From the IMG/VR virus record IMGVR_UViG_2913177423_000002: DNA of 13,420 nucleotides. One strand, written 5' to 3'. The notes under the pieces were generated by a model. That model saw only the letters and a list, made by a program, of their open reading frames with translations. It was not told where the DNA came from and ran no database searches. The stretch comes from a virus. Lineage: Duplodnaviria > Heunggongvirae > Uroviricota > Caudoviricetes. Shown piece by piece: positions 279 to 7,462 of the stretch; position 1 is the first letter of the stretch, and each line of letters begins with the position of its first letter. The translations under genes were made by a program, and so were the position numbers.

Positions 279-368
279 ATGACATCAACACCCCAACGGC
301 CAGAAACCACGGCCACGCATCGTTGCCATTAAATGCGAGCAACGCTGCCATGAAAAAGCAAATCATGC

Positions 369-866
369 TCATTGCTGCCCCCACAAACAGACTTCACGCT
401 CAATCTCACGACGAGTCATCAGCCCTTTCCATTGCTTACCGCCAGCGTATGTCCAGCGACGTAGCTGGTCACATGCGCCTTTGATATCGCCCTGGTTTAT
501 TTTGTGAAGAAGCGTCGATGTTCTGAAATTGCCAGCACCCACGTTGTAGACGAACGAGTAAAGAGCGCCGCGCGTTGTTTCCGGTATATCGACTTTGATG
601 TACGGGTTAATTTGTCTGGCGACCGTGGCAAGGTCTTTATTCAGGAGGGCTTTGCATTCTGCTTCGGTATACGTTTTACCGGGAATGATGTCTTTTCCTG
701 TATGCCCGTAACATACAGTCCATACACCAACTATGTCTTTGTAAGGATTATGTCTCACACCTTCCAGACCATCGTCACCACTCGGACCAGTGATGAGCAC
801 AGACGCTATGGCAACAGCCCCACCACCAATAGCAGCTGCAACAGCCTTGCGTAATGATGGCGACAT
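369..866 (-). CDS. R: SAR endolysin (phage lysozyme R, phage-21 type)
   Basis: 165 aa ORF from track. N-terminal Gly/Ala-rich hydrophobic signal-anchor-release segment ([20 protein letters not shown]) followed by a lysozyme-like domain. Its ATG overlaps the holin stop (ATGA at 864-868). Confidence 0.9.
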
Positions 867-1081
867 TATTCACCTCTCGCAGCCTTACGCTTATCTTCTT
901 TAATCTTGAAATAAAGGTTTGTCAGGTACGTCAGCAGGCCAAATACCAGACTACCCAGCACACCTATTGCCGCCCACTGTGATGGCGTGACTTTATCGAG
1001 CAACTGTAAAAACCAGTAGCCAGCACTGCCTGCAGAGGTGCCATAGGCGACACCTGTTGTTAACTTATCCATTGATTTCAT
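866..1081 (-). CDS. S: Class II pinholin S (S21-like) with dual start motif
   Basis: 71 aa, begins MKSMDK (Met1 and Met4, the antiholin/holin dual-start arrangement), two hydrophobic segments, charged C-terminus. RBS-like GAGGAT upstream. Closely resembles phage 21 S as I recall it. Confidence 0.9.
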
Positions 1082-1302
1082 ATCCTCACCCCGATGTACA
1101 CGGATGGTGCAATATGTTTGAAAAGATCGGAGTCTACGGGTTAGTTTTTACAGCAAACGTTGTTCTCAACGACGCTCAAAAAACAGAAAATAAAAATAAT
1201 GTGGTTAAATATTTTAAAAGAAAAACCATCTATTAAATAATAATGCGGGATATATTTTTCTATTTAGTGTAATGTATACGGCCATTTATACAGGAAAAGC
1301 CT

Positions 1303-1473
1303 ATGTCAGAACGTAAAGACTCAAAATCACGCCGTAATTATCTCGTAAAATGTTCCTGCCCAAACTGTACCCAAGAATCAGAACACAGTTTTTCTAGAGT
1401 ACAAAAAGGTGCCCTTTTGATCTGCCCTCATTGCAACAAAGTATTCCAAACAAATCTTAAAGCTGTTGCCTGA
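1303..1473 (+). CDS. Small putative zinc-ribbon protein (56 aa), opposite strand to the late genes
   Basis: ATG at 1303 preceded by AGGAAAAG; translation MSERKDSKSRRNYLVKCSCPNCTQESEHSFSRVQKGALLICPHCNKVFQTNLKAVA has two CxxC pairs (CPNC, CPHC). Below the size cut-off of the ORF track. A hairpin terminator follows. Confidence 0.45.
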   Translation: MSERKDSKSRRNYLVKCSCPNCTQESEHSFSRVQKGALLICPHCNKVFQTNLKAVA

Positions 1474-1532
1474 GTGTTTTGATTACTTACAAAGAGTTTT
1501 TATATTTTAATAATATATTTAAATCAGATAAT

Positions 1533-1556
1533 AAAAAACCCGCCTGCGCGGGTTTG
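1533..1556. terminator. Bidirectional rho-independent terminator (after cspB-like gene on minus, after zinc-ribbon ORF on plus)
   Basis: Stem cccgc/gcggg (1539-1552) flanked by an A-run (1533-1538) and T-run; read on the minus strand the hairpin is followed by six T. Confidence 0.6.
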
Positions 1557-1754
1557 AGATTGTGGTGCTTTTTGTGGTAGTTACCCACTTACGCACTTTG
1601 TATTGCTATGCCAGCAGTTAGCTTCTACTGTAAAACTATTCATGCAGCAAACCTGCACTTCACCACAAAATGGGATTCAATACCCACAACTCTATCTGCA
1701 TCTCTACTCAGGCATCAGCCTTCTTCGTTATCGTATACAGACAAGCTATGAATT

Positions 1755-1970
1755 TTAATCAGTAATAATGACATTTGCTGCTGCAGGACCTTTAGCACCA
1801 CTCTCTACAGAGAAGGTAACCTTTTGGCCTTCAAATAAGGTTCGATAATTATCATTCTGAATTGCAGAAAAATGCACAAACACATCTTTACTACCATCAA
1901 CAGGAGAAATAAAGCCAAAACCTTTATCAGCGTTAAACCATTTTACTAAACCAGTCATTTTATTTGACAT
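1755..1970 (-). CDS. cspB: Cold-shock protein, CspA family (CspB-like)
   Basis: 71 aa [38 protein letters not shown]...; RNP1 motif KGFGFI and RNP2-like VFVHF of the cold-shock domain. Confidence 0.93.
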
Positions 1971-2165
1971 TCTACATTCCTTAACTTGAGCCTTTCGGCA
2001 TAAATGATTTGTATAACAGAAACGACTTCGTACTTAATTGGAGAGACTCAAAGAAGGAATAAGTGAATAACACCTGAAATGAGAACTGCTTTAGTAAACT
2101 ACTTCGTATATCGTCTGTTCTTCAAACCGACGCAGCCATTAACGCATAGTTGTACACTTGGAAGC
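1971..2165 (-). promoter_or_regulatory. cspA-type promoter and long 5' UTR with cold-box-like element for the cspB-like gene
   Basis: About 155 nt between putative start and ATG. Minus strand reads GTTAAT...GGTTTGAAGAACAGACG (compare cspA CTTAAT...ACGGTTTGACGTACAGAC from memory) and contains GCCGAAAGGC near the start codon as in the cspA leader. Confidence 0.5.
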
Positions 2166-2212
2166 AATGTTTATTTTAGACATCCAGCCACCTCCCCATT
2201 TAAAACACAAAA

Positions 2213-2235
2213 ACCCGCTCATTAGCGGGTTTTCT
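2213..2235. terminator. Rho-independent terminator downstream of Q (tR'-like), hairpin usable on both strands
   Basis: Stem cccgct/agcggg (2213-2229) with T-runs on both sides; on the minus strand it lies about 40 nt after the predicted late transcript start. Confidence 0.65.
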
Positions 2236-2263
2236 ACTTTTTCTCAACACCGGACATACAAAG

Positions 2264-2307
2264 CCCATCGTTGAGAAAATCCTATCCATATTTTTTGAAA
2301 AATGCAA
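2264..2307 (-). promoter_or_regulatory. PR'-like late promoter with qut-like initial transcribed region
   Basis: Minus strand: -35 TTGCAT (2307-2302), 17 bp spacer, -10 TAGGAT (2284-2279), then TTTCTCAACGATGGG, which matches the lambda PR' start region ACTCAACGATGGG (recalled). Sits between the Q stop and the terminator. Confidence 0.55.
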
Positions 2308-2338
2308 GCATCATGTCGATATCTTCGGCGAAAATTAT

Positions 2339-3091
2339 TTATCTTGTCACCTTTCTCAACTGTGCTTCTGCATATGCTTCTTCCTGCCAGCACTTTGTAA
2401 CCAGTTTATCAATAACATCAGCATACCCCTTGTACCACTGATAATCCGTCAGGTCCGGTACCAGTTTCTGGACATGATGCCGCGCCAGTGTGGTTGGTAA
2501 ACGGCTAAACCGGTTTCCATTGCAACGCCCACAAATCTTATAAACAGGCGTGCCATGAAGCCGGGTCCTTTTTTCATCCAGGACAATACCTTTACCCTTA
2601 CACCCTCTGCACGCTGTGCTGACTTCTCCCTTACCATGACAATGCTGACATAGTTCCTTCACCCACTCTTCCTTGATAACGGATTCCCCGCTTCTGGAAT
2701 GTTTCACCACTTCGCGCAATACATTATGAAATCCCGTACCAGCACAATGCTCACAGCGAGCCTTACTTGCCGCAGACCTGGAATAATCAGCAAAGGCAAA
2801 ATTCACGAGGTAAGGAATAATCTGTAACCGTGTTTCTGCACTCAATTTATTCAATGTCGGGTTATCCAGTGCCATCGCGTAATTGAGCAGACCTTCAATC
2901 GCAAACTGAGGGTCCTGAACACCAACTTTTGCCAGGAATAAGGCAAACCCAAGCGGTGCTTTCGACTGCACCATCCCCTGCGCAGCCATCACATCCGTAA
3001 TTGATAAACCACCTGAGTCTGTCGCCGGTGCGTCATCGCTCAATTTTGGAGATTTTGGGGAGTAATATTTTGGTAAGGCCTCAAGATTCAT
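2339..3091 (-). CDS. quuQ: Late antiterminator Q (QuuQ/YdfT-like, 250 aa) with four CxxC motifs
   Basis: Track ORF 2339-3121 begins at TTG; the ATG at 3091 has a GGAGAG RBS and gives MNLEALPKYY... Position just upstream of the late promoter and lysis genes; CEHCAGTG, CQHCHGKG, CRGCKGKG and CGRCNG motifs. Matches my recollection of K-12 Qin QuuQ. Confidence 0.85.
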   Translation of the reverse strand: MNLEALPKYYSPKSPKLSDDAPATDSGGLSITDVMAAQGMVQSKAPLGFALFLAKVGVQDPQFAIEGLLNYAMALDNPTLNKLSAETRLQIIPYLVNFAFADYSRSAASKARCEHCAGTGFHNVLREVVKHSRSGESVIKEEWVKELCQHCHGKGEVSTACRGCKGKGIVLDEKRTRLHGTPVYKICGRCNGNRFSRLPTTLARHHVQKLVPDLTDYQWYKGYADVIDKLVTKCWQEEAYAEAQLRKVTR

Positions 3092-3307
3092 TCTCGCTCT
3101 CCATTTACACCAGCACGCCAATTGGCAGCAAAAAACAATAAAACGGCATCAACCGATCGTTATCTCTGGCTTCATACAATTGTCTCTGCCAGTGTTTTGG
3201 CGTAATTCTTCAGTATCCGGTAATCGGTCAAAACAGAACCGGGAAACGATATAAGCGCAGGCGCCCCCAGCGGTAGCGAAGGAGTTCTGCCATATATGAC
3301 TCACACA

Positions 3308-3670
3308 TCATTCATCCCCCAGTTCGGTGATGATCAGTTCCAGCTTTCCACCCTTGGTAACGGGCATTTTCACAACGCGATAATCAACGACCTGAGCATC
3401 ATCCAGCCAGAAACCTGCTTTGGTGAGTGCGTCAAAAGCTGCTTTTTGCAGATTATCCAGGTCACGGCGACGGCGATCCGGCATGTGGCACTCAATACGG
3501 ATTTTCACTGGCATAGCCAGACCGATATCCAGCATGGAGCCTTTGATGATTCGGGCGACGTTATCGCGGTATACCTGCCCCTCTGCGCTGATGTGCGTGC
3601 GCCCGCGATTATGGCGGTAGTAGCGGTTATTGCTCGGCGGCCAGGGTAGTGTGATGTAGTAAGTATTCAC
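3308..3670 (-). CDS. rusA: Holliday junction resolvase RusA
   Basis: GTG start at 3670 overlapping the upstream stop (GTGA); translation ...[36 protein letters not shown]...[21 protein letters not shown]... is the RusA family signature. The track ORF extends further upstream in frame but that part overlaps ybcO. Confidence 0.9.
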
Positions 3671-3957
3671 GCCTTGATTACCCCCTCTTTCAGCCAGATA
3701 ACCTGCGTTCTCGCCATATCTTCCAGCGCGCATTCTTTTGCATACTCAGCATCGACAAAATGTGTGCGGCGGTCGATTTCGTCGTGACAGGCAGAACATG
3801 CAATGGTGGCAATCAGGTCTGGCGGTTTGATACCGGTACCGCACAATCCAGCCAGCCGGATATGTGCCAGTACAGACGTTTCAGGATTGCCATTACATAC
3901 GCCAGGGATTCTTACCTGGCATTCCCGACCACGCGCTGCTTTTCTCAAATCAGCCAT
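3667..3957 (-). CDS. ybcO: YbcO-like Cys-rich protein (putative nuclease, DLP12 nin-region family)
   Basis: ATG at 3957 with AGGAGG RBS; [42 protein letters not shown]... 96 aa; start overlaps the ninE stop. Confidence 0.85.
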
Positions 3958-4120
3958 GATTCCTCCTTGCTGCCAGTCGCAACCATTTTTTATCAACCAG
4001 GCTGGCGGTATATCCGAGCAGTGTTGGTATTTCGGATGGTTTCAGCTCAGGCTTACGCTTACGACGATTTGGTACTCTGTAGATGTGTCCGCTCATGACA
4101 CGAATAAGCGGTGTAGCCAT
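3950..4120 (-). CDS. ninE: NinE-like small protein (56 aa)
   Basis: Not in ORF track (short). ATG at 4120 overlaps the ybcN stop (TAATG); translation [56 protein letters not shown]; its stop overlaps the ybcO start. Confidence 0.8.
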   Translation of the reverse strand: MATPLIRVMSGHIYRVPNRRKRKPELKPSEIPTLLGYTASLVDKKWLRLAARRNHG

Positions 4121-4575
4121 TACGCCTCCTGCTTGTCGCGCAGCAGCTGGAACTCGCAGCTCTGCGGAATAGTCAGGTGGCAGCCAATATTCATCGCCCA
4201 GGCTTCAACCTTACACAGGAAGACATACATCTCTCCGGTATCAAGATCGGAGGTATGGCGTAACGACTGGATCGTAGTGATTTCGCCGGTTACGACATCA
4301 ACCAGGTCCTTGGTTTCATAACCGAGGTATGTGTGTTTGAGTGCATCTTTTACCCATACTGCAGTAGCGAACGTTTTACCCCTGCTGATGAGGTACTCAC
4401 TGATTTCGCTGTACCACATGTGGCTGAGTGCATTCTGGGAAAGACTGCGTCTCTCGCGCCACGGTTTAAGCACCATGCGAAAGCATTTGCCATCCTCCAG
4501 ATAAGGCTGGATCTGCTGACCGATAGCGGTGAAGTTGCCGCGATGTAATTTGATGCCGTCTTGTGGGAGGTTCAC
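4120..4575 (-). CDS. ybcN: YbcN-like protein (DLP12 nin-region family)
   Basis: 151 aa ORF, GTG start at 4575 with GGAGGTGA RBS; first gene of the coupled ybcN-ninE-ybcO-rusA block. Confidence 0.85.
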
Positions 4576-5086
4576 GCTTCACCTCCGCAGAGGTCAAACG
4601 TTGGATGCAAAAAATCGCAGGTGCATTTCTGCATCTGTGAAGGGAGAAGAGAGTTTAGATTGTGTGTGCGCATAAACGTCCCCGTTTAGCGCAGAAGTCA
4701 CCGGAGGTGTTCAGGCTCCGATGACATGATTATGGCGAGTTGATTATGGAAAATCAATTGAAGATGAAATTCAACAATGCCCCATGGTGCTATGGCGCTC
4801 AATTAATTATATAACTTCAGAGAAAACTGATAACCCATTGATGATGACATTAGCTCAGACTAAGAAGACTGACAACGGGGACGAACATGAACAGCAACGC
4901 CTGACATAGGTAAATCTCAAAAGCGAATCATATAATCCTTACCCCATCACTCAGAGACATCGCATAATAACATTCATACCACTATATAACCTCCAAATAA
5001 CAACAACAATTCATTGGTTGCATTAATATCAGCGTGTTCCGTTGTTCAGGAATAAAACTTTTTATTTAACAAACAAAGAGAGTTCA

Positions 5087-5764
5087 ATGATGAGCAAAAT
5101 TACAGGCGTGTTAGTTGATAGCCATATCTATGATATTAAAAATGATATGGAGAGTGGTTACTGTTTCCCTAACAGTTTGTTCCCAGGAGCAACCTTCAAG
5201 ATGGTCATTGATAATGACCCTATTAATAATGACAAGGTAAAATGGACCTGTAGCACTAATGCAGACAATAATGTTCTGGCGGTTAGCCAGGATGGCACAG
5301 TAACTTTTCCGGGCGTAGATGAAAAGTGCGTTGGGAAGATTTTTGTCATTTTCGCCACTGATAAATCAACAAACAAATCTGCCGGCATCTATGTTTTTAT
5401 TGTGAAGCGTTTTTTCAAATACAGCATTGAACTTTATAACTCAGTTAAAGATATTTTACCGTGGATTGAAAACATGAACGGGAATTTTCCTGAGGCACGT
5501 GACATCTATAGTTACGATTATGATAACTATAGTGGACCGCATATTATCAATCGAGAAGTTAACGCAGGGCTTTACCAGGAATGGGGCACGTTATCTAATA
5601 GTGGATGGGACGCAAGTTGTGAGCTTGAGGGTATTTGTAGCATTTACGCTTTTGATAAAGACAATAATACTTATTATTGCCTGCGTGATTATGGAGAAAT
5701 AGAGTGTATTGATCGTTTTTGCGTCGCTCAGGCAGTTGCATCCTACGGAGAATCCATCGACTGA
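5087..5764 (+). CDS. Orphan hypothetical protein (about 226 aa) in an AT-rich island; possible Ig-like N-terminal region plus Cys-containing C-terminal domain
   Basis: Track ORF 5042-5764 starts at TTG; ATGATG at 5087 with AAAGAGAG RBS is the likely start. Opposite strand to all neighbours, AT-rich codon usage, own terminator downstream. Segment KVKWTCSTNADNNVLAVSQDGTVTFPGV...GKIFVIFAT resembles bacterial Ig-like (Big_2-type) domains (weak, from pattern only). Confidence 0.6.
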   Translation: MMSKITGVLVDSHIYDIKNDMESGYCFPNSLFPGATFKMVIDNDPINNDKVKWTCSTNADNNVLAVSQDGTVTFPGVDEKCVGKIFVIFATDKSTNKSAGIYVFIVKRFFKYSIELYNSVKDILPWIENMNGNFPEARDIYSYDYDNYSGPHIINREVNAGLYQEWGTLSNSGWDASCELEGICSIYAFDKDNNTYYCLRDYGEIECIDRFCVAQAVASYGESID

Positions 5765-5840
5765 TTGTGTTTTTTTCAACTATCATTTGCATTATTACAG
5801 CGTAAAGATTCACTGAAATTATAAAATTTAACTTGCGCAA

Positions 5841-5872
5841 AACCACCCGTTCAGCGGGTGGTTCTCATTTTT
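5841..5872 (+). terminator. Rho-independent terminator of the island gene
   Basis: Perfect 9 bp stem aaccacccg/cgggtggtt (5841-5863) with 5 nt loop, followed by a T-run 5868-5872. Confidence 0.7.
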
Positions 5873-6044
5873 ATCCACTATGTATATGAAGCTTAAAAAA
5901 AATAAACGGACTTAAGCGCTCCTTTTTATATTGCTACAAACAATTAATTCTCGACACCTAATAACTAAAGCCCCGCCCCCATATACCGCCAATACCCGTT
6001 TCATAACAAAATGCTGGTGACATTTCTCACCGGAAACTTTATTG

Positions 6045-6650
6045 CTACTGCTCAGAACGCAAATGCGGCAATACTCGGCTCCACTTATCATCCTGCCACG
6101 GCTGGAATCTTACATGTGCCGTTTCTCTGGCAAGGATTTCGCGCGCCTTATGTAGTATCTGGGGATATTCTTGCTCAATAGAAGTAAAGCGACCGGCTTC
6201 GCGATGCTCCGCAACCTGAAGAAGTGGAGTAACATTCTGGCAGGCGGTTAACATCACATCCCCTGCTCGCCATAACCAGGCGAGTGTGCAAAGTTCGTTA
6301 TCAGTGAATTGTTTTGTGATTGGGGATTGTTGAACTTCTCGATCGAGAATATCCAGAACCCAGCGGCGGAATTCTTTGGCTACAGGAGTGCGGGCGAACA
6401 TAGCGATCAAATGGGCACCACGGAGGGAGAAAATGCGTATTGTTTTCTGGTAGTTCCCTGAGACACTCAAATTGAGGGTCTCAGTCATATCTGCCCTAAA
6501 TTCATCGGAATTTCGATCGTAGATCTGAGTTACGGCATCAGATTTTTTATATCCGAGAGCTTGAGCAATCTCAACGGCAGTAAGCCAGATACTGTTGTTG
6601 TGTTTAACAGGATGGAATTTTGTTTGATGAAAGACTAGTTGTGTGCTCAT
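6045..6650 (-). CDS. Bro-N/KilA-N-like domain protein (antirepressor/Roi-like)
   Basis: 201 aa; N-terminal region LVFHQTKFHPVKHNNSIWLTAVEIAQALGYKKSDAV resembles the Bro-N DNA-binding domain pattern. Family assignment from pattern memory only. Confidence 0.6.
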   Translation of the reverse strand: MSTQLVFHQTKFHPVKHNNSIWLTAVEIAQALGYKKSDAVTQIYDRNSDEFRADMTETLNLSVSGNYQKTIRIFSLRGAHLIAMFARTPVAKEFRRWVLDILDREVQQSPITKQFTDNELCTLAWLWRAGDVMLTACQNVTPLLQVAEHREAGRFTSIEQEYPQILHKAREILARETAHVRFQPWQDDKWSRVLPHLRSEQ

Positions 6651-6807
6651 GATGATTACCTATAAATCAAGTTAACCACCACCGCTGACGCCAATCAGTT
6701 TGGTGGTGAGACATGTAGGGTTGGCGTAACCGGGGTAATCAACCGGCCCGACCGAAGTCGGCCCTACACGCCCCACCATAATTCAGATGTGCGTATGCTT
6801 ACGACAA

Positions 6808-6830
6808 TAAAAAACACGCTCGCGGCGTGT
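6808..6830 (-). terminator. Rho-independent terminator downstream of the ninB-like gene
   Basis: Stem acacgc/gcgtgt (6814-6830) with 5 nt loop; on the minus strand it is followed by TTTTTT (plus-strand A-run 6808-6813). Confidence 0.5.
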
Positions 6831-6925
6831 AGTAGTCGCGATTACCTTATCCGGGACGCCAATCCCGTGTGCCGATTTTGCGGCAACGCACAGAATATAG
6901 CGCCAGATATTAGTTATCGTCAACC

Positions 6926-7414
6926 TCACTGATTTCCTCCCCCCGCCGCATAAACAAATAAAACCCGCTTCATCGCGGCACTCTGGCGACACTCCTTGAA
7001 AATCAGATTCGTGCTCACCTTTCCTTCCCGTTCTTCCCTGGTAGCGAACCGGTAATACACCGTTCGCCAGACCTTACCATCAATGACTAAGATTCCTGCC
7101 CGCGCCATTTTAGCCGCAGCCTGATTTATGCTGGTTACTGTTGCGCCTGTTACCTCAGCAACGTCCTGCTGCTTTAATGCTGCTGTAAAAACGCACTTCC
7201 AGCTTTCTGCATCCAGCCAGCGACCATGCCATTCAACCTGACGAGAGACGTCACCAAGGCAAGCCCAAAGCTTTCGATTCTGGTCTAAGCTGCGGTTGCG
7301 TTCCTGAATGGTTACTACGATTGGTTTGGTTGGGTCTGGAAGGATTTGCTGTACTGCGTGAATAGCGTTTTGCTGATGTGCTGGAGATCGAATTTCAAAG
7401 GTTAGCTTTTTCAT
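6926..7414 (-). CDS. ninB: NinB (Orf) family recombination protein, N-terminal half conserved, C-terminal half divergent
   Basis: ATG at 7414 with GGGGGAGAGGGA RBS; MKKLTFEIRSPAHQQNAIHAVQQILPDPTKPIVVTIQERNRSLDQNRKLWACLGDVSRQVEWHGRWLDAESWKCVFTAALKQQDV matches lambda NinB as I recall it, then the sequence diverges. The track start at 7432 is a TTG inside the RBS. Confidence 0.7.
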   Translation of the reverse strand: MKKLTFEIRSPAHQQNAIHAVQQILPDPTKPIVVTIQERNRSLDQNRKLWACLGDVSRQVEWHGRWLDAESWKCVFTAALKQQDVAEVTGATVTSINQAAAKMARAGILVIDGKVWRTVYYRFATREEREGKVSTNLIFKECRQSAAMKRVLFVYAAGGGNQ

Positions 7415-7431
7415 GACTTCCCTCTCCCCCA

Positions 7432-7462
7432 AATAAAAAGGCCTGCGATTACCAGCAGACCT
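7432..7462 (-). terminator. Possible tR2-like terminator between helicase and ninB
   Basis: Imperfect hairpin aggcctgc/gcagacct (one mismatch) followed on the minus strand by TTTTTATTT. Confidence 0.35.

Follow-up and report, generated by a model that had tools for sequence, protein, structure and literature searches.

The cold-shock gene between Q and the holin of a Qin-type lambdoid prophage segment: cspB with a cspA-type leader as a very probable self-contained moron

What is a cold-shock gene doing among the late genes of a lambdoid prophage, by which signals would it be expressed, and does it serve the host or the phage? The window, that is the whole stretch of 13,420 nucleotides analyzed here (IMG/VR record IMGVR_UViG_2913177423_000002), carries the late genes of its lambdoid prophage segment on the minus strand, and a first-pass annotation made from the letters alone had placed at 1755-2165 a CspA-family gene with its own cspA-type leader, embedded in the late operon between Q and the holin. 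The family assignment and the long leader were borne out (PF00313, 1.1e-31; RF01766, 155.9 bits), but the gene had not been recognized as cspB itself, a long-known gene of Qin-type prophages. The cspB gene, its leader and its location in lambdoid prophages are already known; together with the cold box and the thermosensing function of the long leader, they have been studied for decades. A modest residual interest attaches to a possible Q-driven late transcription of phage csp genes and to a possible benefit for the phage at low temperature.

The coding sequence lies on the minus strand at 1755..1970 and specifies 71 amino acids. The product consists of one cold-shock domain in about 70 residues, the size and domain content of the CspA family (Pfam CSD PF00313 at residues 5-68, E = 1.1e-31, 108.9 bits, cutoff 27), and in an alignment with CspA, CspB, CspG, and CspI the motifs RNP1 (KGFGFI) and RNP2 (VFVHF) were both intact. 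It shares 70 of its 71 residues (99%) with K-12 CspB, the sole difference being V55 in the window and I55 in K-12, and was 79%, 76%, 69%, and 43% identical to the paralogues CspA, CspG, CspI, and CspF, respectively. The NCBIfam model of the CspA subfamily was passed (143.3 bits, cutoff 130), the CspG equivalog was failed (134.4 bits, cutoff 144), and the PDB entry of CspA, 2l15, was matched at 1e-34. Near-identity to K-12 CspB was found together with the conserved neighborhood of Q, cspB, ynfU, and holin; judged by sequence, the window gene is cspB, the E. coli CspA paralogue of Qin-type lambdoid prophages.

From the UP-like stretch through the terminator, the window DNA is collinear with K-12 cspB (b1557) in the cryptic prophage Qin, where the genes follow in the same order: ydfT (Q), cspB, ynfU, and essQ (holin). 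The two loci share the promoter architecture, the 3′ UTR, the terminator, the antisense gene ynfU, a lambda-family Q with PR′ and tR′, and a holin of the P21 type. A further copy, 99.8% identical and annotated as cspB, is found in the blood isolate SF-468, in an apparently complete lambdoid prophage with the same gene order. Unlike the window, K-12 has about 650 bp inserted between tR′ and the cspB promoter, a segment whose genes cspF and ynfS face the other way, an extra 82 bp in the cspB 3′ UTR, and a promoter spacer of 17 nt, compared to 18 nt in the window.

The module is common. At least 80% of the region 1200-2400 of the window was present in 1,604 of 5,426 complete E. coli genomes (about 30%), the module was found in the phage genome records 2H10, Tritos, HannyBb, PhiR63_1, and PhiR42_1, and a close CspB was encoded on 549 IMG/VR contigs. 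Among the best 80 of these 549 viral loci, cspB was preceded by Q on its own strand in 74, followed by a holin on its own strand in 76, and accompanied by ynfU in 76. The closest stretch within this set of the best 80 was the IMG/VR locus L010, with 99.4% identity over window positions 366-4971. Taken as a whole, the window is mosaic: at most 48% of it was covered by any complete E. coli genome and at most 33% by any phage record.

The predicted 5′ UTR of about 161 nt (1971..2131, minus strand) was delimited by covariance model, alignment, and motif searches. Its length follows from alignment to the K-12 cspB and cspA leaders and from the roughly 160 nt published for the 5′ UTR of K-12 cspB, which contains a cold box and implies an independent transcription start (PMC6719143). 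The Rfam cspA thermoregulator model RF01766 matched at 2131..1739 over its full length (model positions 1-428; E = 2.5e-41, 155.9 bits with the gathering score at 78). Since this model also spans the coding region, the leader at 2131..1971 was searched separately, and it matched model positions 1-151 with 25.8 bits (E = 4.5e-5). The cold-box-like element claimed earlier was located near the 5′ end as TGAAGAACAGACG at 2124..2112, the sole match in the window even at two mismatches (0.27 expected from shuffled sequences), and the second claimed element, the upstream box GCCGAAAGGC, was located at 1999..1990 as the one exact match in the window (0.01 in shuffles). The upstream box precedes the Shine-Dalgarno sequence AAGGAA at 1982..1977. 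As in RF01766 members, the predicted UTR of about 160 nt has a cold box at its 5′ end and an upstream box ahead of the Shine-Dalgarno sequence.

The alignment of the leader to those of its relatives, which the first-pass annotation had proposed as a check, showed differences from K-12 cspB at 2 of 161 positions and a sequence closer to cspG than to cspA, a relationship also reported in PMC13271884. Likeness to cspA mRNA extends over the long 5′ UTR, the cold box near the 5′ end, GCCGAAAGGC before the Shine-Dalgarno sequence, the AT-rich UP-like region, the promoter with its extended -10, and a stretch resembling a downstream box in codons 5-11; cspA belongs to the core chromosome, whereas cspB of the window is prophage cargo. 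In 77 of the best 80 of the 549 IMG/VR loci, the leader differed at zero to three of its 161 nt, which points to selection.

The minimum-energy fold of the leader with 90 nt of coding sequence was one long hairpin, in which the Shine-Dalgarno sequence and the AUG pair with leader nucleotides 63-78 (pairing probabilities of 0.97 and 0.90, respectively). This predicted fold matches the form published for the K-12 cspB, cspG, and cspI leaders at 37°C, a large stem-loop of UTR and start of the coding sequence that hides the ribosome-binding site and the AUG; in the cold, these leaders switch to a register-shifted form, as probed experimentally (PMC13271884). The folding energy of the window leader was no better than that of shuffled sequence (z = -0.21), and equilibrium folding gave the closed form at 37, 25, 15, and 10°C with no switch, a type of calculation that cannot test a thermosensor set kinetically or co-transcriptionally. 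The thermosensor step is therefore based on homology and on the published probing.

Upstream of the cassette, the late antiterminator Q of 250 amino acids is encoded at 2339..3091 on the minus strand (Pfam Antiterm PF03589, 4.2e-53); its start was taken as the ATG at 3091, whereas the mechanical open reading frame call begins at a TTG at 3121. It belongs to the lambda-Q family with the CXXCXGXG zinc-finger insert, matched lambda-Q chains in PDB (7ubm, 3.5e-38; 4mo1, 3.2e-25), and was 97% identical to K-12 YdfT; the SF-468 copy is annotated as antitermination protein. The putative late promoter PR′ with its pause element was assigned purely by homology at 2264..2307 (minus strand), with a -35 TTGCAT at 2307..2302, a 17-nt spacer, a -10 TAGGAT at 2284..2279, and a probable start at about 2271. 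The lambda-type promoter-proximal pause element CTCAACGATGGG at 2275..2264 was identical in the alignment of lambda, K-12 Qin, and the window. A tR′-like intrinsic terminator was predicted at 2202..2234 (minus strand), its hairpin at 2234..2209 having an 11-bp stem with five G-C pairs and a 4-nt loop, followed by a T-rich tail; it is conserved in K-12 Qin and would stop late transcription after about 70 nt, leaving a short leader RNA. Between 800 and 3200, the terminator scan returned 10 sites, compared to 2.0 in shuffles.

The putative cspB promoter, assigned by homology at 2132..2178 (minus strand), comprises an AT-rich UP-like stretch at 2178..2168, a -35 TTGCTT at 2167..2162, an 18-nt spacer with TG at 2146..2145, and a -10 GTTAAT at 2143..2138. 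In the alignment with the promoters of K-12 cspB, cspA, cspG, and cspI, the bases TTGC in the -35 hexamer and TTAAT in the -10 hexamer were invariant. [quoted passage not shown] Downstream of the coding sequence, a 3′ UTR of about 200 nt (1536..1754, minus strand) aligns with the K-12 cspB 3′ region and ends in an intrinsic terminator at 1555..1536, an 8-bp stem followed by TTTATTAT, predicted by the terminator scan. The span originally proposed, 1755-2165, thus takes in the whole of leader and coding sequence and the greater part of the promoter, and leaves out the UP-like stretch at 2178..2168, the 3′ UTR, and the terminator.

Further along the late strand lies the P21-type S holin (866..1081, minus strand; Pfam Phage_holin_2_1, 2e-35), with which the lysis genes begin and the cargo slot ends, followed by a lysozyme gene (866..369, minus strand; Pfam, 8.5e-48). 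The claimed position on the late strand between the tR′-like terminator and S was confirmed, with the hairpin at 2234..2209 upstream and the holin at 1081..866 downstream. Between cspB and the holin, on the plus strand at 1303..1473, is ynfU, encoding a 56-residue zinc-ribbon protein (Pfam YnfU PF23499, 2.5e-31; NCBIfam YnfU family, 79.8 bits, cutoff 36), which is convergent with cspB, antisense to the late transcript, and in the same position in K-12 Qin and SF-468. Late read-through would yield RNA antisense to ynfU.

Several features expected of a lambdoid moron were found in this cassette. It is situated in the slot between PR′/tR′ and the holin on the late strand, and terminators stand on both sides of it. 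A terminator of its own is predicted at 1555..1536, and a promoter of its own is placed by homology alone and uncalled by the scan. The G+C content is 34-38% across about 1000-2400, compared to 46-53% in the flanks, and cspF is variably present among otherwise near-identical modules. In lambda, no csp gene is annotated in the same slot. The cspB cassette is thus very probably a self-contained moron with promoter, leader, coding sequence, and terminator between Q/PR′/tR′ and the holin.

The comparison with toxin cargo made by the first-pass annotation also stands, as Stx phages carry stx in this slot, from Q/tR′ to S and on the same strand as cspB here. Further likenesses to stx are a putative regulated promoter of its own, probable exposure to Q-dependent late read-through, and atypical base composition (PMC8065619). 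The product of stx is a secreted toxin, whereas CspB is an intracellular RNA chaperone, and unlike in stx, the leader thermosensor would probably uncouple the output of CspB from late transcription.

Identity, anatomy, synteny, and prevalence of the cassette come from the present analysis, and cold induction, the leader switch, and Rho attenuation come from the literature on the K-12 orthologue. After a cold shift, K-12 cspB mRNA rises about 100-fold and the protein appears de novo (PMC3704898). Transcription of cspA, cspB, and cspG is cut short at 37°C by Rho, which binds within their leaders (PMC12360218, with reference to Delaleau 2024). Expression of K-12 cspB, cspF, and cspI is highest in long-term stationary phase, and loss of cspB or cspI lowers competitive survival (PMC7406224). 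We infer that the cassette in a lysogen would behave as in K-12, which includes promoter activity of the window copy; late transcription across the cassette and any effect on the phage are likewise inferred.

In a lysogen, the cspA-like sigma-70 promoter would give an mRNA with a leader of about 161 nt. At 37°C, the long leader hairpin would bury the ribosome-binding site and the start codon and expose the transcript to Rho and to degradation; once the temperature drops, the leader would refold, the cspB mRNA would be stabilized and translated, and CspB, an RNA and single-stranded DNA chaperone, would help the host to resume gene expression in the cold. A role in cold-dependent host fitness, as suggested earlier, would be consistent with the literature on the CspA family. 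In lytic growth, Q-modified polymerase from PR′ would pass tR′, the cspB cassette, its terminator, and the antisense ynfU on its way to the lysis genes. Because this polymerase must cross the cassette to reach the lysis genes, cspB would be co-transcribed with the late operon, like stx, and the leader would probably still limit translation of the read-through RNA at 37°C. No report of Q-dependent read-through of cspB was found in the literature searched, nor anything that speaks for or against an effect of CspB on late read-through, the other role proposed earlier. It is highly likely, in our judgment, that cspB is a moron of Qin-type prophages that is cold-induced in the lysogen and also co-transcribed late.

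The late-strand position raises the alternative that CspB, made from the late transcript or in the cold, serves the phage instead of, or besides, the host. As an RNA chaperone or antiterminator, it would aid the read-through or the translation of the long late mRNA and so adjust, at low temperature, when the cell lyses or how large the burst is; we consider this alternative unlikely. Retention of cspB in sequenced phage genomes, beyond cryptic prophages, and the finding that as many as three csp genes surround the lysis genes in Qin-type phages speak in its favor, whereas the slot is without a csp gene in lambda and many other lambdoid phages, and no phage-side function or phenotype of prophage csp genes was found in the literature searched. 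The cassette does follow directly after tR′ on the late strand, but Q-modified polymerase already ignores terminators, intrinsic as well as Rho-dependent, and there is no obvious need for a CspB helper. CspA-family proteins can antiterminate transcription by melting hairpins (PMC4956666), and yet the leader, to judge from its predicted fold, should hold CspB translation low at 37°C even on a read-through transcript. Slightly less likely again are the routes by which this might come about, namely that Q-modified polymerase bypasses the Rho attenuator of the leader and gives lytic CspB, or that CspB made beforehand in cold-stressed lysogens melts the late mRNA. Were CspB functional for the phage, Qin-type phages could complete lysis at the low temperatures met outside the host.

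It is very improbable that cspB of the window lacks a promoter of its own and is expressed only along with the late genes, or that it is a non-functional relic in a prophage undergoing decay. The 18-nt promoter spacer, which could weaken transcription relative to the 17 nt of K-12, the silence of the promoter scan, the mosaic window, intact in no complete E. coli genome, and its chimeric-looking NinB would suit these readings. Against them, tR′ separates PR′ from cspB, the same spacer recurs in five loci, promoter, leader, open reading frame, and terminator are intact and near-identical to the expressed and cold-induced K-12 cspB, and the conservation of the leader (77 of the best 80 loci with zero to three changes per 161 nt) points to selection. 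That the cold-shock-domain protein is an anti-phage defense effector like those of type V or Se72 retrons, suggested by the generic domain matches to PADLOC CSD_V (1e-15) and the NCBIfam retron Se72 effector (55.5 bits), is effectively refuted, since the latter score misses its cutoff of 82 and falls well short of the 143.3 bits of the CspA subfamily, no reverse transcriptase family was matched among the open reading frames scanned in the window, and 70 of 71 residues are those of the housekeeping-type chaperone CspB.

Within the preferred reading of cspB as a cold-induced moron, the absence of cspF, the absence of the 82 bp in the 3′ UTR, and the spacer length are minor allelic differences. 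Most copies have the cspF/ynfS segment; it was missing in 6 of the best 80 of the 549 viral loci, a minority variant to which the window belongs, and also in the four genomes matching at 99% identity or more. An 18-nt promoter spacer was present in 5 of the same best 80 loci, including the cspF-less loci closest to the window. The cspF-less variant with the 18-nt spacer is a natural allele that can be compared with the K-12 form. In K-12 (L001, 5060-6495), the cspF/ynfS segment has ATGGGG-like short repeats at both junctions, and the window (1480-2345) has a single copy of the ATGGGG-like repeat, AAATGGGGAGGTGG; a single copy against two K-12 junctions suggests insertion or deletion between short repeats. 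The 82-bp insert in the K-12 cspB 3′ UTR holds a strong Shine-Dalgarno sequence and a tiny open reading frame.

Of the nine csp paralogues of E. coli, three (cspB, cspF, and cspI) are carried by phages as cargo grouped about the lysis genes. In the phages 2H10 (L085, 188-400) and Tritos (L088, 47-458), further csp genes were observed just downstream of Rz, as in K-12 Qin, and comprise cspI/cspG-like genes and a small "cold-shock protein"; with cspB upstream, csp genes thus stand on either side of the lysis cassette. The position downstream of Rz lies beyond the end of the window. An unannotated CspA-family gene was also observed at 2489-2800 (minus strand) in the 108-kb phage Cyrano (L086, OV696614.1), between a polymerase gene and a hicAB pair; its DNA was 78% identical to window positions 1767-2148, including part of the leader. 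Cyrano encodes DNA polymerase III alpha and T4-like UvsY and gp32.

Further features were noted elsewhere in the window. A low-G+C island (36-38%) at about 4700-6000, on the strand opposite to the nin genes, contains a 240-residue open reading frame (5042-5764, plus strand) with no Pfam match above cutoff (weak Invasin_D4, 0.0048) and no PADLOC match, and this island may be a second moron. The C4 antisense RNA (6783..6699, minus strand; Rfam, 74.2 bits) and the isrK Hfq-binding RNA (6885..6809, minus strand; Rfam, 61.2 bits) are found just upstream of an open reading frame of 201 residues (6045-6650, minus strand) for a Bro-N/P22_AR_C antirepressor, an arrangement that looks like a P1/P7-style c4-ant immunity module, similar to Gifsy isrK, inserted in the lambdoid nin region. 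The adjacent open reading frame of 168 residues (6926-7432, minus strand) matches NinB only at residues 9-112 (profile positions 2-110 of 131) and continues into unrelated sequence with a weak HTH_Crp_2 match; the sequence looks like a NinB that is either chimeric or truncated and adjoins the isrK/C4 insertion.
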